Shown: in pieces, positions 1 through 34,120 of the stretch
Position numbering within the stretch: the stretch's first letter is position 1
Layout: each line of letters starts with the position of its first letter
DNA from: a virus
Lineage: Duplodnaviria > Caudoviricetes
Direction: 5' to 3' (one strand)
IMG/VR virus record: IMGVR_UViG_2728369482_000003
Coordinates: 1-64,000 of that record
Length of the DNA: 64,000 nucleotides
Program-made: the position numbers and the translations under genes
The notes under the pieces: model-generated
Told to the model about the DNA's origin: nothing
The model's database searches: none
What the model saw: the letters and a program-made list of their open reading frames with translations, nothing else

Positions 1-1224
1 ATGTTACAGCAGGTAAAATCGATTCTACAGAAGAAAAAACGGGCCACCGGACTTTATCCGATCATGCTACGGATCCGGCCCGAGGGAAAGGAACAGCTTA
101 TTTCTACTGGCTTTACCAGTAAACTGACCGACTGGGATCAGAAGAAAGGCCGGCCGAAGAAGTCTCATCCGTTATTCGAGGAAATGATGCTCAAGCTGCC
201 CGAACTGGAACTATCGGTAGCCAAGGGCTTAACCAACAGTCAGACGGGTCAATCCAGCCGGCAGATACTGGAAAAAGCCGTCAATAAGGCTTCAACGGGA
301 AGCCAGACCGGGGTACTGGAATACACCCGGGAAACGATCAAGCGGCTCAAAGCCGAGAACCGGCATGGTTATGCCAATGCTTTCCGGGGAATGGAGCTGA
401 GTCTGGAAAAGCAGTTAACCAAACGACAGACGGATTTCCAGTTTTCCCAGCTAAGCCCCCAGTTCATCCGGGCCTGGGAAAGCAGTCTCCGCCAGAAAGG
501 ATGTAAAGACACGACTATCTCAGCTTATTTCCGGGCTTTCCGGACGATGATCGGTTACGCCCGGTTGGAAAAGCTGACCACGGTTAATCCCTTTTCCGGG
601 GAGGATAAATTCAATATGAGTCCATACGGCAGTATCAAGACGGCCAAACGGGCTATTGAACGGGACAAGATCGAGCTACTCCACCAACTGGAGCTGGAAG
701 AAGATAGTCCGGAGTTTCACGCCCGTAACTTTTTTATGTTTTCCTTTTTCACCCGGGGCATGAACCTGATCGACATTGCCCGGCTGGAACCCAAGCAGAA
801 AGTCGGGGACTATTTGGAATACCGCCGGGCCAAGACTCATCAGTGGCAACGGGTGTTTATGCTAGATCCGGCCAAGGATATCTGGAACTATTACCTGGAA
901 CGGATGAAGAAAGGTCAGCAAACGGTCTTCTGGTTTATCTTCTGGCCCAGGCATAATACACCGGAACTACAACGAACCCGGATGCAGACGGTACTCAAAC
1001 AGATCAACAAACTACTACGGAAACTGGCTAGTCAGGTTGGGATTGAAACCCACCTGACGACCTACGTAGCCCGGCATTCGTTTGCTTCCAGTCTGAAACA
1101 CCTGGGTATTCCCACGGATCAGATCTCGGAGCTACTAGGTCATGACTCGGTAGAAACGACCCGGATTTACCTGGAGAGTTTCTCGGACGAGACCCTCAAC
1201 GAAGCCGTTCGAAAGCTACTGTAA
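1..1224 (+). CDS. int: Tyrosine recombinase/integrase, Bacteroidota type (arm-binding + SAM-like + catalytic domains)
   Basis: N-terminal YPIMLRI..ISTG arm-binding motif; catalytic-region motifs RGMNLIDI, YRRAKT, TTYVARHSFAS, LLGHDSVETTRIYL. Confidence 0.93.
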   Translation: MLQQVKSILQKKKRATGLYPIMLRIRPEGKEQLISTGFTSKLTDWDQKKGRPKKSHPLFEEMMLKLPELELSVAKGLTNSQTGQSSRQILEKAVNKASTGSQTGVLEYTRETIKRLKAENRHGYANAFRGMELSLEKQLTKRQTDFQFSQLSPQFIRAWESSLRQKGCKDTTISAYFRAFRTMIGYARLEKLTTVNPFSGEDKFNMSPYGSIKTAKRAIERDKIELLHQLELEEDSPEFHARNFFMFSFFTRGMNLIDIARLEPKQKVGDYLEYRRAKTHQWQRVFMLDPAKDIWNYYLERMKKGQQTVFWFIFWPRHNTPELQRTRMQTVLKQINKLLRKLASQVGIETHLTTYVARHSFASSLKHLGIPTDQISELLGHDSVETTRIYLESFSDETLNEAVRKLL

Positions 1225-5512: not shown

Positions 5513-5801
5513 CGAGTATTTCCCTTCCTTGTTTATCCAGTTTTTCCCATAACCCCCAGACCAGATCGTTCTGATACACCGTTCTGGTCATTAAGCCAAT
5601 CCGGTTCAGCTTTTCGTAGCAGGCCAGAATCTCGGGAATTGTCCCGGCTTTCCAGATTTGATTCTGTAGAGCCAGCCAGTCGTTGACAAACTGATCTTTC
5701 TGGGCTCTACGGGGCTTTAGGACAACCGATCTGTACCAGCCGTATCCCAAAGCCCCCAGTAGCAAACAATTGATTACTGCCCACTTAAAAAGCTCGTCCA
5801 T
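5457..5801 (-). CDS. Hypothetical protein with N-terminal transmembrane helix
   Basis: WAVINCLLLGALGYGWY hydrophobic segment; in leftward operon. Confidence 0.65.
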   Translation of the reverse strand: MDELFKWAVINCLLLGALGYGWYRSVVLKPRRAQKDQFVNDWLALQNQIWKAGTIPEILACYEKLNRIGLMTRTVYQNDLVWGLWEKLDKQGREILDEKKRSLATEKRRLGCFN

Positions 5802-6238
5802 GCGGATGGTCCGGTTAGTTTCTGTTTATTCTCTTCCTGGCTTTTAGTCAACAGGAATGATTCAACCTGCTCTCGGAACGTAAAGGGTAGATCACTCACG
5901 TGCTGCTCCAGGTATTGTTCCATCAGATTCACAACCTCAGCCTGGATATAATACGGTTTGGTCAGTTGCTGAGCCCGGTCATCATTAGTGAAGATACCCA
6001 GATAGGAATCCCGGTGATGGCCGTATACGACTTCCAAATCGTCCAGGTAAAACGGACTGCTCTGCATTTCGGAAGCTCCACTAACCCAGACATAAGCCCG
6101 ACCATCGTCGTAGATATGTTTCTCCCGGATGAACAGGTAAAATTCCAGTTTCATCATGTACTCTTCCAGCAGACTACTGGGTTGAAAACCTTCCCGGAGC
6201 CGGACAATTACATTTTTGGCTACCTCGTCTTTTCTCAT
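5774..6238 (-). CDS. Hypothetical protein
   Basis: 154 aa ORF coupled to the upstream gene by an ATGA overlap. Confidence 0.7.
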   Translation of the reverse strand: MRKDEVAKNVIVRLREGFQPSSLLEEYMMKLEFYLFIREKHIYDDGRAYVWVSGASEMQSSPFYLDDLEVVYGHHRDSYLGIFTNDDRAQQLTKPYYIQAEVVNLMEQYLEQHVSDLPFTFREQVESFLLTKSQEENKQKLTGPSAWTSFLSGQ

Positions 6239-18592: not shown

Positions 18593-18929
18593 TCCCTACT
18601 GGCAGCTCATCCGCCAGAAGCTGCGGAATCCTCAGGACTGGATCTACCGGCTGGAAGGGCTTGGTTCCTACCGAATGAACGGGAACCGGTTATTCAAACT
18701 CCTGGCCATGCTGCTGATCCGGCTTCGGCAAAACCGCGCAGGTCTGTTCCCGCTGGCTCCCCGGGATATCGAGGAACACCACCAGCAGATCCGGATGCTC
18801 TGGAGACTGAAACAGGCCCTGAGTTGGCGGCTGCTCAAACGAACCGACGGACTGAACCGTCCCGCTCCCAAAGCCCAGGTCGAAGCCCTTATCCAACAGA
18901 AAGCCAATGTGTCAGACAAAGACGTGTAG
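18513..18929 (+). CDS. IHF/HU-like DNA-binding protein
   Basis: Two N-terminal helices followed by YRLEGLGSYRM (HU v.l.GfG.F motif). Confidence 0.6.
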   Translation: MKSWKQIQAQLATEFNLPLKTIQLTTDPYWQLIRQKLRNPQDWIYRLEGLGSYRMNGNRLFKLLAMLLIRLRQNRAGLFPLAPRDIEEHHQQIRMLWRLKQALSWRLLKRTDGLNRPAPKAQVEALIQQKANVSDKDV

Positions 18930-19326
18930 AGACTGTAAAGAGACTAAACCAGTCACGGAGTTCTATAAATCAGGTACAGGTAATCGTCTTCAGTCGTACT
19001 GTAAACTGTGTAATAGTAAACGGGCTTCAGCTAGTTACAAACGGATTTATCAGAAAAATCCGGATTTAAAAAAGTCCAGAAATTTACGTAACCGGTATGG
19101 TATAACGCTGGATCAGTACAACCAGCTTTTACACCGGCAGAACCGATGCTGCCGAATTTGTGGTACTCACGAAGATCTGGAGGGAAAGTCTCTGGCCGTC
19201 GATCACTGCCACAGCTCCGGTAAAATCCGGGGGCTACTCTGCTCCAACTGCAACACGGCCCTGGGCAAAGTCCGGGACAACGTCGTCATTCTCCATTCCA
19301 TGATTCACTACCTCCAGGCTGCATAA
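18907..19326 (+). CDS. Endonuclease VII-like HNH nuclease (probable free-standing homing endonuclease)
   Basis: CRDC..SYCKLC; YGITLDQY; CRICG; LAVDHCHSSGKIRGLLCSNCN. Confidence 0.9.
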   Translation: MCQTKTCRDCKETKPVTEFYKSGTGNRLQSYCKLCNSKRASASYKRIYQKNPDLKKSRNLRNRYGITLDQYNQLLHRQNRCCRICGTHEDLEGKSLAVDHCHSSGKIRGLLCSNCNTALGKVRDNVVILHSMIHYLQAA

Positions 19327-19616
19327 TGAACTTTTCTGAAGCCCTACAAAAGCTGGTAACAGGGCATAAAATGAGACGGTATTACTGGAAGCCTTCCGAT
19401 TATATCTATTTCTGTCCGGGAGTATTTCTTGATCCATACCGGGACGATGATGAACCGATTGCGGGAGTTCCTGTAAAATACTTCGAAGTTGGGTTCATTG
19501 GCCGTACATCGTTAGAGCCTCAGTTTTTTAATCAGGACAATCAACTTGTCAAACTGTCAGCCGCTTCGGTATTGGCTGAGGACTGGTATGAATTCACTCA
19601 AACACCTGTAGAATGA
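19326..19616 (+). CDS. DUF2829/Tad2-like protein (candidate Thoeris anti-defence sponge)
   Basis: MNFSEAL..L..G.KMRR..W ... SVLAEDW. Confidence 0.75.
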   Translation: MNFSEALQKLVTGHKMRRYYWKPSDYIYFCPGVFLDPYRDDDEPIAGVPVKYFEVGFIGRTSLEPQFFNQDNQLVKLSAASVLAEDWYEFTQTPVE

Positions 19617-20336: not shown

Positions 20337-20641
20337 CACTGACTACCGAACTACTCCAGGCCCTGGGTTTCCAGGAAGGTGAAGCCACCTGGACTGATGA
20401 ATACGGAGTAACCCTATACAAGACGGCTATGCCCGACGATCTGTTCACCCTCAAACGGGTACTGACAGGTACAGCTTACAACAAGGGTAAAAAAGCCATG
20501 CAGTACCTGGCTACCACCAAACCCTGTCCGGTAAACCCCTGTCCTACGGAAACGAAGCTGATGACCACGGTACTACCGGTTGACACAACCGATCAGAGCT
20601 ATAGTATTCCGCAGTGGGGAGCCCGTTTCCTGGAATCATAA
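20333..20641 (+). CDS. Hypothetical protein
   Basis: LTTELLQALGF N-terminus, common in Bacteroidota phage small proteins. Confidence 0.6.
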   Translation: MTLTTELLQALGFQEGEATWTDEYGVTLYKTAMPDDLFTLKRVLTGTAYNKGKKAMQYLATTKPCPVNPCPTETKLMTTVLPVDTTDQSYSIPQWGARFLES

Positions 20642-20841
20642 CCGTATTCATATGATTTCCGAAAAATTGAAACAGGCCCTGAGCCATGTCGAACAATCCG
20701 ATGAAGAGCGTCTGAAACACAGAGAAGCCCTTCTTGAACACTACAACGGCTTACTAGAAACACTCGAATCAGGTTCTTCCACTGCTGAAGGAGTTCGACA
20801 GATTATCAAATTGATAACCACCCAGGTAACCGAATTAAAAA

Positions 20842-21252
20842 ATGAACAGAGCTGATTTCATAAAATCACTTCTGGCTGTTCCAGCCCTATTAAGTTTATC
20901 ATCTAAAGCTAAAGGTGATTCAGCTTTTAAAGATGGTGTTGATCGGAGTAGTTGGACAAAGCCGTACATACCGGTAGATGCTGTTATAGATTCTACTAAG
21001 TTGTATGTTGCAGATGGAGAATCATTTGTACTTCCTCTAACAAATGGCTATTTCTCAAAAAACGATTTGATCTGCCCGGACAATGATAAATCGTACTACT
21101 TATTTGTTAGTAACAGCCACGAAACAATGCCAGGTGTTTATCTGCACACGGTACAGGTAGTAGGAAATTGGGGAGATAAAAAGACCATAACTCTGGTACC
21201 AGGTACTTCTTACTCCAGAGTATGTTCAGCCAAAATGGAGTACAATGGCTAA
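20842..21252 (+). CDS. Signal-peptide-like leader + domain resembling an internal domain of the major capsid protein
   Basis: MNRADFIKSLLAVPALLSLSSKAKG leader; by-eye alignment to the MCP region 32708-32962. Confidence 0.6.
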   Translation: MNRADFIKSLLAVPALLSLSSKAKGDSAFKDGVDRSSWTKPYIPVDAVIDSTKLYVADGESFVLPLTNGYFSKNDLICPDNDKSYYLFVSNSHETMPGVYLHTVQVVGNWGDKKTITLVPGTSYSRVCSAKMEYNG

Positions 21253-21817
21253 AAAGAAAAACATTTACACTCGGATCGGTTATGACCAGGTTCGGGCTGA
21301 GCTCGACTCCACAGCCGACTGGTTAAGTCTTCAGGTAATCGAGGATCTGTTCGATGACATTGAGTACAAGGTTACCCAGACCGGAGGCATAGCCCCGCTA
21401 ATTTCAGACCGAATAGAAGACAAGCTGAAGGGCATTGTTAATGTCATCCATATCCAGATTGGAATGTTGACAGCTATTCTGGAGAAGGATGGATTGACCA
21501 GTTATGTCGAGGAAAAAACGGAGATCTTCCGGAATACCCTCGAACAGATTCAGCAGTACTACCAGAAGCGGCCGGTATCCAGCATTGAAAGCCGGAAGAT
21601 TACGAAAGTGTCCGGTAAAACCAAGACCGGAGCTTCCCGGGAAATTACCTTTGTTGTGGCTACCAAGTACCAGCAGATAGCCAACCGGAACATCATTAAC
21701 GACAAGGTACTCAAGACCTTACCCTTGCTGGAAAAACTCGAAGAAGCGACTGAAGCCCTTGACGTCAAGGGTGATTACGAAGTACCCATTTCCCTTCAAA
21801 TTCGTGGACTTGCCTAA
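21245..21817 (+). CDS. Helical protein upstream of TerL; terminase small subunit candidate
   Basis: Position and overlap with TerL; 190 aa. Confidence 0.45.
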   Translation: MAKKKNIYTRIGYDQVRAELDSTADWLSLQVIEDLFDDIEYKVTQTGGIAPLISDRIEDKLKGIVNVIHIQIGMLTAILEKDGLTSYVEEKTEIFRNTLEQIQQYYQKRPVSSIESRKITKVSGKTKTGASREITFVVATKYQQIANRNIINDKVLKTLPLLEKLEEATEALDVKGDYEVPISLQIRGLA

Positions 21818-24800
21818 TTCCGCTTCACAGGCTCCCCGGGATTTTTTCAATGTTGATTCACCTGAGATGTTTATCAACATGGACCCGGCCAAACTTCCCC
21901 CCAAGAATCACCCGGAGTTTTTACAGCTGGCGGCCCACGAACGGGACAAGTGTAAAAACGGGGTAAACATCAACGGACAATACGTCGTTCCCAGTCTGTA
22001 CTATGATCTGAACTTTCACACCATCCTTTATGATGCCCTGGATGAACAGGGTAATGAAATCCGAGTAAAGGGTCGTCCCCAACTCCGGGATAACGGCTGG
22101 ATTCTTCATAACGATTACTACCAGGCTAAGAAAGAAAAGAAAGGCTATGTGGTGGGGGGTGCCCGCCAGATTGGCAAGGACCTGCTAAATACATCCCTGT
22201 TGTACACCCCGACGGGTGAAATCCAGATCGGAGATGCCCAGGTAGGTCAACAGATCTATGGAGCTGATGGTAAACTAACCACGATCACCGGGGTATATCC
22301 CCAAGGGGTTCAACCTGTTTACCAGATGACCTTACGGGATGGTCGAAAACTATATTGTGGTTTGAATCACAACTGGTATGTCTGGAATAATCGAAAATTC
22401 AGTGGACGGGGGGTTTATGAAGTCAAAACTACCCGGGAATTGTTGGTCGATTATAAAAAAGAAATTGATCAACGACCAAATCGGTACGAAACTCAGCATA
22501 GTAAATATGCTATTCCAACGGCTAAACCCGTCGAGTATAGTGAAAAAAACCTGCCAGTTGATCCGTACATTCTAGGTATCTGGCTAAGCTGTGGAGATGA
22601 CCGTCATACAGCTCTGATAACGTCAGATCGACAATTGGAAAAGGTATGGTGTGATTTTGCCAAGCAATCAGGTTTAACTTGTAATCGCTGGAAAAAGAAG
22701 TGGGTTGGGCATCCTGAAGAAGTAATTATCAAAGGACCAAAGAATTGCCTTCACTGTAACCCACTTCGAAAACAGCTGACAGAACTTGGTCTACTTTGTA
22801 ATAAGCATATCCCGGAACTCTACAAGAAAGCGTCTGTTTCACAACGACTAGCTTTAGTCCAGGGAATACTGGATGGGAAAGGCTCGTTCAATGCTTCTAA
22901 CAATGTTGAGTTTTCAACGGATATAACTCAGTTGATGGCTGATATGGAATGGGTTTGTCGAAGCCTGGGAATGAGCGTTAAACAGCGGTCTAATTTTGCA
23001 GAACTAAAAAACTCAACCAGTACACCAACGGTTATTACCATTCATTCCATATTCCCTCTTTTTCGACTTGATTATAAACTAAGTGAGTTAGCTGATAAAT
23101 CTGAGCAGCTAAATCCGTACAAATCCAGTATCGTTGATATCCAGTACGTCTACAATGCTCTGACTACCTGTATTACGGTTGACAATCAAGACCACCTGTT
23201 TTTGACCGATGGGTTTACGGTTACCCACAACTCGGACTTTATCGTCTCGCTTACCTGCCGGGAGTTGTTCTGTTTTGATAACGCCGAGGTTCTTGGTTTG
23301 TTCTCAATTTCCCAGGACAAGGATACCTTCAACAAAAAGTTTGGGGTAGCTATTTCGGATAAGGATAACTTTCTGATTGTTCCCAGTATCGACAAGGACT
23401 TATCCCAGACCTTGATTCGGTTCGGAGTAACCCGGAAAAATAACGAGCCGATCATTCTTTCCCAGCTGTTTACTTACCTAACCAAGGCGGGTAAAGCCAC
23501 CGAAGTGGGGGCTGGTAAATCGACCACATTCTTTTTCTTCGACGAGATTGCCAAGGAAGAAATGCAGGGAGCCTGGGATGCGGTTAAACCAGCCCTCCGT
23601 TCTTCATTTGGTGGTTACCGAAACCCACCCCTATTTGCATTCACAGGTGGAAACGTAGAAAAATCCAAAGATGCCATTGATTTGTTCATGAATCCTGACG
23701 TAAACGAGCTTCTCAGCTTTGATACGGAAGGAAAACAAACGGGCAAGTTTATGGGGGGGTGGTACCGGGCAGATTTCAAAAACACGATTCCACTGGCTCA
23801 GTACCTAAATAAACCCGTCACGGGAGAACTAGCCAAGCTCCAGATTCAGGTGACTGATTTTGAACGAGCTAATACAATCCTGGATCAGGAACAGACGGTA
23901 GCCAAGGAAAGTAAAAAGCCGGGGACGTTGGCCAAACATAAAATGTACAATCCCCGTACATTGGACGAAATGTCCCTTTCCGTTACGGAATCCCCGTTCC
24001 AACGCTACCGGGAAGGACTCAAACGTCACCAGGACTGGCTGTACGAAACAAAGCCCGGAAAAGCTGTTGAGCTATATACATTACCCGGCGGAGAAGTCAA
24101 ATACACCCTCTCGGAGAAACTACCCATTGCCAATTTTCCCCACAAGGATACCGATCTGATTGAGGATGCCCCGATCATGCTTTATGATGAACCGGTCCAC
24201 AAAGGCAGTTATAAGCTTCACGTGGGTGGGCTTGACCCCTATAACATTGGGCAAACGGGTACATCATCCTCCCTGGGGGCCCTCTACCTGATGCGCCGGC
24301 ATTACGGAGGACTCGACGATGCCTTTCAGGATACGATGGTGGCCAGCTACGTAGCCCGGCCCGAACGGATTCCGATGTTTCTGAAAAAGATCAAGGAACT
24401 TCTGGATTACTTCGAAGCCAGTATGCTCCACGAGTCCAGTACCGATGCCGTCCTGGATTACTTCGACAAGGATTACGGAGCGGAAACCTACCTGGCCAAG
24501 ACCTGGAATCTGAAGCAGGAAATCCAGCCCAACACCAGCTACAAGGGAACCTACGGAGTACCCCCCACCCCGGCCTTCCAGAAAGCCTGGATGAACAAAA
24601 TCATCGATTATATCTCCGAAGTCATCGGGGAAACCGATACGGGAAAACCGATTCTGGGCTACACCCGGATTCTGGATCCACTGCTGATCGAGGAAATGCT
24701 CCAGTGGAAAGAAGACCTCAATGTTGATAGAGTGGTCTCATTCGGACATATGCTACTTTACCGGGACAGTCTGGAGAAAAATGACAAACCCGTCGTCATC

Positions 24801-24923
24801 AACCGGACCGAATCGGATCAACCGGCTCAACCAAAAACCCGGTCTGTCTGGGGGATCAGTCAGAAAACCAGCAGACGGACTACTTCCGTAAAACAAACCC
24901 GTAAACCCTTTGGGATTAAATGA
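21759..24923 (+). CDS. terL: Terminase large subunit with intein (true start may be 21804-21867)
   Basis: Walker A GARQIGK|S split by the intein; FFFDEIAK Walker B; FTGG motif; nuclease domain GGLDPY and NVDRVVSF. Confidence 0.92.
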   Translation: MTSRVITKYPFPFKFVDLPNSASQAPRDFFNVDSPEMFINMDPAKLPPKNHPEFLQLAAHERDKCKNGVNINGQYVVPSLYYDLNFHTILYDALDEQGNEIRVKGRPQLRDNGWILHNDYYQAKKEKKGYVVGGARQIGKDLLNTSLLYTPTGEIQIGDAQVGQQIYGADGKLTTITGVYPQGVQPVYQMTLRDGRKLYCGLNHNWYVWNNRKFSGRGVYEVKTTRELLVDYKKEIDQRPNRYETQHSKYAIPTAKPVEYSEKNLPVDPYILGIWLSCGDDRHTALITSDRQLEKVWCDFAKQSGLTCNRWKKKWVGHPEEVIIKGPKNCLHCNPLRKQLTELGLLCNKHIPELYKKASVSQRLALVQGILDGKGSFNASNNVEFSTDITQLMADMEWVCRSLGMSVKQRSNFAELKNSTSTPTVITIHSIFPLFRLDYKLSELADKSEQLNPYKSSIVDIQYVYNALTTCITVDNQDHLFLTDGFTVTHNSDFIVSLTCRELFCFDNAEVLGLFSISQDKDTFNKKFGVAISDKDNFLIVPSIDKDLSQTLIRFGVTRKNNEPIILSQLFTYLTKAGKATEVGAGKSTTFFFFDEIAKEEMQGAWDAVKPALRSSFGGYRNPPLFAFTGGNVEKSKDAIDLFMNPDVNELLSFDTEGKQTGKFMGGWYRADFKNTIPLAQYLNKPVTGELAKLQIQVTDFERANTILDQEQTVAKESKKPGTLAKHKMYNPRTLDEMSLSVTESPFQRYREGLKRHQDWLYETKPGKAVELYTLPGGEVKYTLSEKLPIANFPHKDTDLIEDAPIMLYDEPVHKGSYKLHVGGLDPYNIGQTGTSSSLGALYLMRRHYGGLDDAFQDTMVASYVARPERIPMFLKKIKELLDYFEASMLHESSTDAVLDYFDKDYGAETYLAKTWNLKQEIQPNTSYKGTYGVPPTPAFQKAWMNKIIDYISEVIGETDTGKPILGYTRILDPLLIEEMLQWKEDLNVDRVVSFGHMLLYRDSLEKNDKPVVINRTESDQPAQPKTRSVWGISQKTSRRTTSVKQTRKPFGIK
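22179..23231 (+). mobile_element. Class 3 intein (351 aa) with LAGLIDADG-type endonuclease domain
   Basis: Starts DLLNTSLLYTPTG; block B NHNW; block F TTCITV; ends TVTHN|S; endonuclease motifs DPYILGIWLSCG and LVQGILDGKGS. Confidence 0.9.
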
Positions 24924-32389: not shown

Positions 32390-34120
32390 ATGATTCAAAC
32401 TGGGAGCCCGAATAACGGGATGAACCGGGGTGTTGCCATTCACACGACCAAGCTGGAGCTGGGTACCAAGCACACCGAGAAAAACTCACTCACCCAGCTG
32501 ATGGGTCCCTCCGAGCAGTACCTGGGTCTGTTGAAACTCTGGAACCAATACCAGATCATTTCGACTCCGCTGCTGTCGGCTACCGAGCTGAGCAACAACG
32601 TGATGTATACCAACGGCCTGGGGGCGTCCCTGAGCTATTCGGTACCCGTCAAGTTTGCCCTGCCCTTTACCACCGACGACATCAACGAGGAAGCCAAACC
32701 GGGTCTGAACCGGGAAGTTTTCTGGCTGCTGCTCAACACGCCCAACTACACCAAGGGTGATTTGCTGACCTACGACAGGGAAAACGGTAAGCAGGTCGTC
32801 GTCGATTTCTCGGTCGAGGAAAACCCGGCTCCCTACGGGGGCGGAGCCTGGCTCTACGGGGTTAAACTAACCTCGGACGATCCAAAAGATTTCGTGTCCC
32901 GCCGGTTTACGGCCGCCGGGATCAGCTGGGTTAAAATCGGTAACGTCAAATCGGAATGGAGCCGGGAAAACTCGGCCATCACCCAGGATTCGGACGGTAC
33001 CGAGACGCTGATGTTCAAGACGGGTAATGCCCTTCAGTCGGTCGAGCACTGGATGACGGGTCACGCCGACATGCTCGAATACAACGTCGATAGCCGGGGT
33101 GGTGGTACGAACCTGGCCCAGACAAAATCCGTCATGGGTCAGTTTGCCGATCCCCACAAGGCGGCCGTGATGTATTTCTTCGAGACCCTGGGTGATCCCA
33201 ACGATCCGAACAACCCGGATATTCAAAAGAATCCGATCCCGAATTCGGGCCGCTGGATGCCAGTCATCATCATGATGCTCATGAAGGAGACCGCCCGGAT
33301 GCAGAACGACTTTTATATGTACTCCCAGGGTGGTGTCGTCTGGGACGGCCGGGGTACGGCAACCCGTATCGGGATGGGGTATTATCCCCAGATCAAATCG
33401 TCGGGTAACTACCACACCTACCAGAAACCCGAGCAGATCGGCCCGCTGCTGAAAGAAATCACGGGGGATCTGTTTTTTGGCCGGGTGGATCTGCCCTACG
33501 ACCAGCGGAAGGTTAAATTCCGGATGGGTATGGGTGCGTTGATCGAAACCCAGAAATACTTTAAACGGGAGTTCGGTCAGGACATCGCCTTCACCGTCTG
33601 GGCCCAACACAAAGCCCTCGATGGAATGCTGACGGGGACCAACCTGGATCTATCCTACAAGGGCTACCGGTTTACTTCGTTTTTGTTCCCCGAAGTAGGG
33701 TTCGTCGAGATCGAACACGATCCGGCCCTGGACCAGATCGGCACCAAGGAAACCAACGGGTTCCGGGGCCGCTACTCGACAAAATCCTACCGGGTGTTTG
33801 TCGAGGATCTCACCGAGGGAGCCTTCTCGAATGCTATGCCCCCGGCGGCCAATTACGACGTCCGGGAAGGTTTCAACAACGGAGCCAACGTGGTACTGGT
33901 CAAGCCCAAAAACTACGATAAGGTTTATAGTTCCTACCGGGTCGGTACCTACTGTCCGGATATGCTCAAAACCTACGTCGGAGCCGGAGCCAATGCCCAC
34001 ATGCGGTCGGATGACGACAACAAGTTCTCGGTTCAGATGCAGTGGGCAGGTGAAGTCTGGGTAAAAGACCCCAGCCGCACAATCCTCATCGAGCTGGAAG
34101 ACCTGCTGGAAACGGCCTAG
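32390..34120 (+). CDS. Major capsid protein (crAss-like)
   Basis: 576 aa; GYRFTSF..PEVG.VEIEHDPALD; C-terminal VWVKDPSR; followed by a strong terminator; synteny. Confidence 0.85.
   Translation: MIQTGSPNNGMNRGVAIHTTKLELGTKHTEKNSLTQLMGPSEQYLGLLKLWNQYQIISTPLLSATELSNNVMYTNGLGASLSYSVPVKFALPFTTDDINEEAKPGLNREVFWLLLNTPNYTKGDLLTYDRENGKQVVVDFSVEENPAPYGGGAWLYGVKLTSDDPKDFVSRRFTAAGISWVKIGNVKSEWSRENSAITQDSDGTETLMFKTGNALQSVEHWMTGHADMLEYNVDSRGGGTNLAQTKSVMGQFADPHKAAVMYFFETLGDPNDPNNPDIQKNPIPNSGRWMPVIIMMLMKETARMQNDFYMYSQGGVVWDGRGTATRIGMGYYPQIKSSGNYHTYQKPEQIGPLLKEITGDLFFGRVDLPYDQRKVKFRMGMGALIETQKYFKREFGQDIAFTVWAQHKALDGMLTGTNLDLSYKGYRFTSFLFPEVGFVEIEHDPALDQIGTKETNGFRGRYSTKSYRVFVEDLTEGAFSNAMPPAANYDVREGFNNGANVVLVKPKNYDKVYSSYRVGTYCPDMLKTYVGAGANAHMRSDDDNKFSVQMQWAGEVWVKDPSRTILIELEDLLETA

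Follow-up and report, generated by a model that had tools for sequence, protein, structure and literature searches.

The I-domain of the phicrAss001 coat protein gp32 (residues 79-180) is a β-barrel located in the E-loop and is widespread in crassviruses (Bayfield et al. 2023, PMC10172136). Together with an auxiliary capsid protein, it builds three-fold assemblies that account for a large part of the capsid's exposed exterior (PMC10172136). The P22 coat protein likewise has a small β-barrel inserted in its HK97 fold, the P22 I-domain (residues 226-344, PF11651), for which structural similarity to the crAss001 I-domain has been reported (PMC10172136). Duplication of a coat protein into a separate gene is known from phage T4, where it gave the vertex protein gp24. 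Finally, T5 Llp, phi80/N15 Cor and TP-J34 Ltp are small, accessory and fast-evolving proteins that reach the envelope by means of a signal or lipoprotein signal and act in exclusion or receptor masking.

Here we compare with these systems a gene found in a stretch of 64,000 nucleotides from a virus of the Caudoviricetes (positions 1 to 64,000 of IMG/VR record IMGVR_UViG_2728369482_000003), hereafter called the window. Profile comparison and model superposition over ~95-100 residues indicate that its product, P0001, has the same barrel as the gp32 I-domain (PDB 7QOF/7QOH). However, the gp32 domain is part of an HK97-fold coat protein, inserted in its E-loop, and is located on the capsid, whereas P0001 is the 136-aa product of a separate gene and has a signal-like N-terminus. 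Unlike the gp32 I-domain, a gene of the P0001 type is found in some relatives only. The P22 I-domain is an insertion in the A-domain, not in the E-loop, and has no detectable sequence relation to P0001. T4 gp24 differs from P0001 in being a structural paralogue of full length that has no signal. As regards the Tat signals (PF10518, TIGR01409), the M-N-R-x-D-F-I-K start of P0001 and its h- and c-regions are like those of host signals and of many small phage proteins, but the second arginine is an alanine and the syntenic relatives of P0001 use Sec-type signals instead. The exclusion and masking proteins resemble P0001 in the properties listed above, envelope targeting being inferred for P0001, and the lipobox of one syntenic relative (P0029) fits this group. 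However, they have no known sequence or fold relation to P0001 and none of them is capsid-derived. In addition, the P0001 gene looks co-translated with late genes, and the function of P0001 is only inferred.

Results

Genomic setting of P0001

The relevant features of the window are listed with their coordinates, strand and basis.

1..1224, + strand: tyrosine integrase, at the left of the window (context)
20640..21300, no strand: low-GC island (0.36-0.43) with P0001 at its centre (composition)
20842..21252, + strand: P0001, a 136-aa ORF consisting of a signal-like peptide and a very probable free-standing I-domain-like β-barrel (sequence, profiles, model)
20842..20916, + strand: signal-like N-terminus, P0001 residues 1-25 (sequence, hydropathy, host RR signals)
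20953..21246, + strand: I-domain-like β-barrel, P0001 residues 38-135 (hhalign, HMM, model pLDDT, VIA)
21245..21817, + strand: conserved 190-aa gene before the large terminase (position, conservation)
21759..24923, + strand: large terminase with an insertion earlier read as an intein (phrog_6681, E = 1.7e-49)
32390..34120, + strand: resident major capsid protein (MCP), Crass_capsid PF23898 (Pfam, PHROG, relatives)
32660..32959, + strand: I-domain of the resident MCP (residues 91-190), homologous to P0001 (hhalign, gp32 comparison)

Translation of P0001 can start only at ATG 20842, since a stop is found two codons before it and no further Met occurs until residue 96. The hydrophobic N-terminus therefore belongs to the product. 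The gene begins before the upstream ORF ends and shares 8 nt with the next gene, which starts at 21245. By position only, this 190-aa gene is possibly a small terminase. No family match was found for it. Used as a locus query, its family returned no relatives in viral, genome or metagenome contigs, and the gene was not recovered from the 300 genomes of the host family that were searched.

The window sits in a 229-kb contig (C9) of a 6.57-Mb bacterial genome (G000). The tyrosine integrase, which has an Arm-binding domain, lies to the left of the crAss-like gene set. The occurrence of this integrase together with the large terminase and a Crass_capsid-type MCP in a bacterial contig leads us to conclude that the element is an integrated temperate crAss-like phage. 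The contigs that contain relatives of the MCP are 144-574 kb long and include one from Spirosoma terrae. Because of the relative in Spirosoma we infer that the host is probably one of the Cytophagales.

Other accessory genes were observed in this region. An endonuclease VII gene (E = 1e-23) followed by a gene resembling Tad2 (Thoeris anti-defence 2; 19326-19616, E = 3.5e-7) occupies window positions 18907-19616, ~1.2 kb upstream of P0001. Among the relatives, Tad2-like and Acb2/Tad1-hairpin genes are located between the terminase and portal genes. The large terminase itself varies in length from 715 to 1821 aa among relatives (L012:4529-9994, L013:5812-10008, L008:6891-10004, window 21759-24923). 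Its long forms have homing-endonuclease or intein Pfam matches; those of L012 (Hom_end, Intein_splicing) are clear, those of L013 and L008 only weak or faint. As both the length and the intein matches vary, insertions appear to come and go in the large terminase gene.

Sequence similarity of P0001 to the capsid protein

The initial annotation, made by eye, had aligned P0001 colinearly with a segment of the resident MCP (32708-32962). This segment is in frame and reads as quoted there. The colinear similarity held, but it is supported by profile methods and not by plain pairwise BLASTP with the resident MCP, in which the claimed alignment scored only 10 bits and was not significant (E = 64). 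Smith-Waterman alignment of full P0001 with the full resident MCP gave p ~0.015 by shuffling. These two comparisons with the resident MCP alone would leave the similarity unsupported.

The profile methods gave a different picture. Using hhalign and an alignment of 21 MCP sequences (A1), residues 40-134 of P0001 were placed on MCP residues 91-190 with a probability of 82.5% and an E-value of 1e-5. The observed score of 41.1 compares with 15.2 ± 3.0 for 100 shuffles of the mature part (maximum 26.2; z ~8.6) and with 14.5 for the reversed P0001 sequence. A genome-wide search was chosen to avoid selection after the fact. An I-domain HMM was built from MCP columns 88-195 and run against 61,928 six-frame host ORFs. 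The MCP was retrieved with an E-value of 1.9e-36 and P0001 came second (9.2e-4, 21 bits). The next ORF had an E-value of 4.3 (9 bits), leaving a gap of 12 bits. In pairwise BLASTP, P0001 matched the I-domain of a distant MCP, P0025, with an E-value of 2e-5 (28% over 101 residues); its identity to any MCP is 13-32%. Reciprocally, an HMM made only from P0001 and the two other free copies described below (P0028 and P0029) matched nothing but MCP I-domains among 2,876 locus ORFs and the 61,928 genome ORFs. The alignment of the three free copies (A2) compared with the MCP alignment gave a probability of 97.3% and an E-value of 2e-11.

Searches beyond these sets returned little. Neither Pfam nor PHROG contained a family matching P0001 at E ≤ 1, and the only PHROG match of P0029 was to phrog_11589, a major head protein family, with an E-value of 0.094. 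Among 5.8 billion protein clusters and 1.8 billion representatives, P0001 retrieved only itself and one BACON_2 repeat protein. The latter (8 repeats) shares only a 19-residue motif with P0001 and was dismissed as a short convergent strand motif; no Pfam match to a BACON domain (PF13004/PF19190) was obtained with P0001. A search with the three-member family found no further members, and tblastn of P0001 and P0028 against GenBank phages gave no match. In 400 genomes of the host class, the family profile found one MCP-length open frame. This 506-aa frame (G449:C32:9664-9930, L107) lies in a genome from a different family of that class, fits the I-domain profile with an E-value of 4.8e-5 and is likely to be another crass-type MCP in a bacterial genome. 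A 129-aa signal-bearing host ORF beside a coaE-like gene, with an E-value of 6.5e-4 per genome in the 400-genome scan, was regarded as a chance match.

Fold of the domain

In the MCP profile, the segment similar to P0001 aligns with residues 98-173 of phicrAss001 gp32. What had first been called an internal domain is the known crassvirus I-domain of the E-loop and not an unnamed piece, and the earlier reading is corrected on this point.

AlphaFold2 run on the single P0001 sequence gave an unusable model (pLDDT 35). The nearest structures to the model of P0001 made by the ESM Atlas itself were Crass_capsid clusters (TM 0.58 and 0.56, residues 33-135), with SU10_MCP proteins lower in the list (TM 0.52). 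This model is independent of the alignments made here but of low confidence (pLDDT 0.53). The same approach with P0028 was uninformative. When AlphaFold2 was supplied with an alignment of the free copies and MCP I-domains (A5), the pLDDT of P0001 rose to 74 overall and to 85-93 in the barrel (residues 60-130). The first seven PDB matches of this model in Foldseek were all phicrAss001 gp32. Using VIA-align, residues 40-136 of the model were superimposed on residues 81-183 of gp32 (7qoh_A) with a Z-score of 10.8 and an rmsd of 3.0 Å; over the gp32 chains, 94-102 residues were aligned, starting at 74 or 81 and ending at 183, with an rmsd of 3.0-3.1 Å. The next fold, the pyruvate kinase B domain, had a Z-score of 6.9. 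Since alignment A5 consists mostly of MCP I-domains, this model is partly circular; it demonstrates fold compatibility and is not an independent proof.

The absence of profile or structural similarity to the MCP segment would have refuted the proposed relationship; such similarity was found, and homology and fold are shown. An HK97 body is absent from P0001, which has neither an A nor a P domain and whose ORF is bounded by stops. P0001 is a derivative of the I-domain and not a coat protein. Its identity as a free-standing barrel of the I-domain type can be accepted with high confidence.

Free-standing I-domain genes occupy the same slot in related phages

The MCP/terminase regions of six related phages were scanned with the I-domain HMM. 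Besides the MCPs, exactly three ORFs matched in the fetched loci.

P0001, window 20842-21252: 136 aa, I-domain HMM E = 4e-5 among loci
P0028, L007:8956-9357: 133 aa, I-domain HMM E = 2.7e-11
P0029, L008:5913-6296: 127 aa, I-domain HMM E = 2.6e-8

All three genes lie immediately upstream of a conserved 190-194-aa gene, which they overlap or abut and which precedes the large terminase, and all three are coupled translationally to this downstream packaging gene. The slot upstream of the pre-terminase gene contains an I-domain gene in three of the six related phages examined. The synteny is shown. At the L007 position no gene was listed by the gene caller; the protein database does, however, contain an identical 133-aa protein. 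The slot upstream of the large terminase is covered by the stretches fetched from L012, L013 and L014, and no I-domain-like ORF was found in them, in the slot or elsewhere; in L013 and L014 the slot holds a different small gene. Similarly, no such ORF besides the MCP was found in 21.6 kb around the distant clade-B MCP P0025 (L016). The claim of a repurposed capsid domain standing free behind an export-like signal is upheld by profile, reciprocal-profile, structural and synteny evidence.

The Bacteroidota-type -7 promoter motif TAnnTTTG was not found upstream of the free I-domain genes of the window and L008; one copy is present in L007, ~430 nt upstream of the gene. In L008, an uncalled gene for a 66-aa protein with two hydrophobic stretches (5716-5916, +) precedes the lipoprotein-type I-domain copy, and the two genes overlap in an ATGA. 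A 69-aa hydrophobic ORF is present in L007 (8555-8764), and no such ORF is found beside P0001. These two ORFs could encode a small membrane partner or a holin-like protein.

N-terminal signals of the three free copies

The N-terminus of P0001 consists of an n-region, MNRADFIK, a 13-residue h-region, SLLAVPALLSLSS, and a basic c-region, KAKG. Small residues at -3/-1 would allow cleavage after SKA or AKG. Compared with ~30 twin-arginine signals of the host (M-x-RR-x-F-[LI]-[KQ]), the consensus is matched except for R-A in place of R-R. The remaining features of the Tat architecture are met (F-[LI]-K, a short h-region of moderate hydrophobicity, a basic c-region and small residues at -3/-1), and the host encodes TatC. 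However, Pfam TAT_signal (PF10518/TIGR01409) did not match P0001 at E ≤ 1, and consecutive twin arginines are absent. The description of this segment in the initial annotation, as a Tat signal with one arginine replaced, held as a description. The Kyte-Doolittle hydropathy is 2.15 for the best 11-mer and only 1.04 for a 19-mer; the segment is therefore signal-like rather than a transmembrane helix. There is no lipobox in P0001, which has no Cys before residue 78.

The two syntenic copies begin differently. P0029 starts with MRK and a short hydrophobic stretch followed by AILG-C, which fits the lipobox pattern. P0028 has RKR and a 17-residue hydrophobic stretch ending in SAS, with a 19-mer hydropathy of 1.93; from its sequence, we infer a Sec-type signal or anchor. 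The presence of N-terminal hydrophobic signals is shown. That three diverged copies each carry a different secretion-type N-terminus is our main argument that targeting or export is a selected feature. Export or membrane targeting of P0001 is likely; this inference rests on sequence rules and on the three differing hydrophobic N-termini, without localisation data.

In a MAFFT alignment, residues 9-35 of P0001 (KSLLAVPALLSLS...; 20866-20955) are colinear with MCP residues ~55-85 (...STPLLSATELS...; 32540-32660). The signal-like segment could have been derived from the coat sequence just upstream of the I-domain; this alignment has no hhalign support and may be due to chance.

Composition and phylogeny

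P0001 has a GC content of 38.9%, compared with 48-49% in the flanks, and a GC3 of 31%, compared with 58% for the next gene and 74% for the MCP. The earlier observation that the gene is AT-richer than its neighbours thus held for both GC and GC3, and the foreign composition of P0001 is shown. From this composition we conclude that P0001 was imported from an AT-richer phage.

Identity among the free copies is only 19-27%, against 54-65% among the I-domains of the corresponding three MCPs; the flanking genes of the three phages are 36-54% identical. P0028 and P0029 are clearly related (BLASTP 1.4e-10), and for both the resident MCP clade gives the highest scores. For P0001, no greater closeness to these two copies than to MCPs could be detected. 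The tree places it with the distant MCP P0025 (support 95/90), but its branch is very long. Monophyly of the free copies (p = 0.19) and a position of P0001 within the resident clade (p = 0.27) are both compatible with the AU tests, and for P0001 clade-specific HMMs do not discriminate (13.1 vs 14.5 bits). A common origin of the three free copies is not shown; it is only not rejected. For P0001, a duplication in an ancestor shared with P0028 and P0029 and a separate capture both remain possible. The resident MCP is not shown to be the donor, and the earlier reading is qualified here too: the composition is foreign and, among single sequences, the I-domain of a distant MCP is closest.

Signals joined to capsid fragments in other phages

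Scanning viral contigs for MNR-x-DFIK gave 89 sites. At 39 of these a small ORF with a hydrophobic h-region begins; the residue pair is R-R in 32 cases, R-K in two and R-L in two. The viral MNRRDFIK proteins do match Pfam TAT_signal, unlike P0001. With this one narrow pattern giving 39 such ORFs, small proteins that start with MNRRDFIK and an h-region (60-190 aa) occur in many viral contigs of IMG/VR (L017-L105; for example L082:4898-5407 and L027:1892-2398). They include two recurrent families of ~160-190 aa, with the motifs WDYRVYC... and PYFVNCYI..., that have no Pfam or PHROG annotation beyond TAT_signal.

Two proteins combine such a signal with a piece of a capsid protein. The first (L029:191-511, -; 107 aa) matches both TAT_signal (E = 1.5e-6) and phrog_283, a major head protein family (E = 1.4e-7). 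It also aligns with the P22 coat I-domain region (profile positions 261-313, E = 3.6e-4), below the Pfam cut-off. The second (L087:1608-1841, +; 78 aa) has a Tat signal and is 52% identical to residues 11-52 of the MCP of its own locus (L087:7784-8851, +; phrog_9953, E = 5e-67). Neither protein has a sequence relation to P0001. The combination of a signal with a capsid piece therefore recurs in unrelated capsid lineages.

Discussion

We propose that P0001 is a paralogue of the crassvirus MCP I-domain that stands free, evolves fast and has a secretion-type signal fused to its N-terminus. The gene would belong to a small accessory set that uses a fixed slot directly upstream of the pre-large-terminase gene, and would have reached the prophage horizontally from an AT-richer phage. 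The barrel would be exported or tethered to the membrane by a Sec or weakened Tat-type signal. At the cell envelope it may serve as an accessory factor, the capsid barrel being used only as a stable binding scaffold. We assign a probability of about 0.6 to this explanation as a whole (paralogue, export and accessory role at the envelope), in which the function is inferred.

The most likely role would be phage-versus-phage exclusion or receptor masking by the temperate phage. In the absence of expression or localisation data, this narrower assignment is tentative and, in our judgement, more likely to be wrong than right. A decoy, an assembly modulator and an exported blocking or exclusion factor had been offered as examples in the initial annotation; these functions are untested. 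We favour the exported option over a cytoplasmic decoy or assembly role, as an inference, because two syntenic relatives carry Sec-type signals. P0001 has no sequence similarity to any known exclusion protein; exclusion and masking proteins are grouped by function and share no sequence signature. Moreover, the coupling of the gene to the downstream packaging gene suggests late lytic expression, which argues against classic exclusion expressed from the lysogen. Lambda Bor is a lipoprotein moron encoded just upstream of cos-Nu1, and the position of the slot recalls that of bor.

The main rival of this proposal is a capsid mimic. In the cytoplasm, the I-domain copy would bind a capsid-recognising partner, for example a defence protein that senses capsids or a rival phage's coat or auxiliary protein, and the Tat-like signal would drag or sequester this partner at the membrane by 'hitchhiker' co-export. 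Tat carries folded proteins, and the N-terminus of P0001 follows the Tat consensus. Anti-defence genes are nearby (Tad2-like, 19326-19616), P0001 is closest to a heterologous MCP, and unrelated phages fuse true TAT_signal peptides to MCP fragments (L029, L087). However, P0001 lacks the second arginine and fails TAT_signal, no partner is known, and the lipoprotein and Sec-type signals of the relatives translocate unfolded chains and cannot carry a partner along. The mimic fits the Tat-type examples but not the signals of the two syntenic relatives, and we consider it unlikely. Still less support is available for a structural or assembly role, in which an extra I-domain would attach to capsomers or to the auxiliary protein, decorating the capsid or modulating its assembly, and the N-terminus would not be an export signal. 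The gene does lie in a packaging and structural run to which it is translationally coupled, and the phicrAss001 I-domain contacts the auxiliary protein at three-fold positions (PMC10172136). Against this, the gene was not detected at the slot in three of the six related phages examined despite the same capsid genes, the free copies are extremely divergent compared with the conserved MCP I-domain, all three have signal-type N-terminal segments, one with a lipobox, and the composition of P0001 is foreign. Such a role is very unlikely.

We attach even less weight to a decaying remnant, that is, a functionless partial duplication of the MCP or recombination scar. This would account for the very high divergence and for the orphan status of P0001 among the 1.8 and 5.8 billion proteins searched. 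However, three diverged phages have intact ORFs (127-136 aa) in which the core residues of the barrel are retained, each copy has acquired a different well-formed signal, and the overlaps with flanking genes are tight. Finally, P0001 could be a generic small β-barrel or Ig-like secreted protein, for example BACON-like, unrelated to the capsid and similar to it by chance or convergence. The PGVY-x-HT motif, the BACON_2 repeat protein with its 19-residue motif as the sole non-self match in 1.8 billion, and the many β-barrels that score Z 6-7 against the P0001 model can be cited in its favour. This explanation is made very improbable by the colinear profile match over ~95 residues (E = 1e-5), by the second rank genome-wide with a 12-bit gap to the noise, by the pairwise E-value of 2e-5 to an MCP (P0025) and by the syntenic copies, which reach 3e-11; nor was there a Pfam BACON match.

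No description of free-standing I-domain copies was found in the full-text literature searched, where the crassvirus I-domain appeared only in a structural atlas paper (PMC10172136). The parts, I-domain and signal peptides, are known; their combination in a separate signal-bearing gene is undescribed in that literature, export being inferred. A bolder reading than our preferred one is possible, namely that a signal joined to a coat fragment represents a recurrent, undescribed class of phage accessory gene, with the crass-type I-domain, the P22-type I-domain region of L029 and the N-terminal MCP piece of L087 as examples. Excised pieces of coat protein might be sent to or through the membrane, where they would interfere with the assembly of rivals or with a host capsid sensor. 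If so, P0001 would be a capsid-derived weapon against related phages, a temperate phage carrying an I-domain of heterologous type.

Insertion domains of coat proteins have been known only as parts of the capsid shell. The crassvirus I-domain now appears also as a separate, mobile and rapidly evolving gene, placed behind secretion-type signals in a fixed accessory slot of a clade of temperate crAss-like phages. The L029 and L087 examples suggest that evolution has arrived at this solution more than once. If its role lies in conflict between phages or between phage and host, the free I-domain would be a bacterial-virus counterpart of the capsid-derived restriction factors of animals, and would extend the accessory genes of the Crassvirales by a new category.
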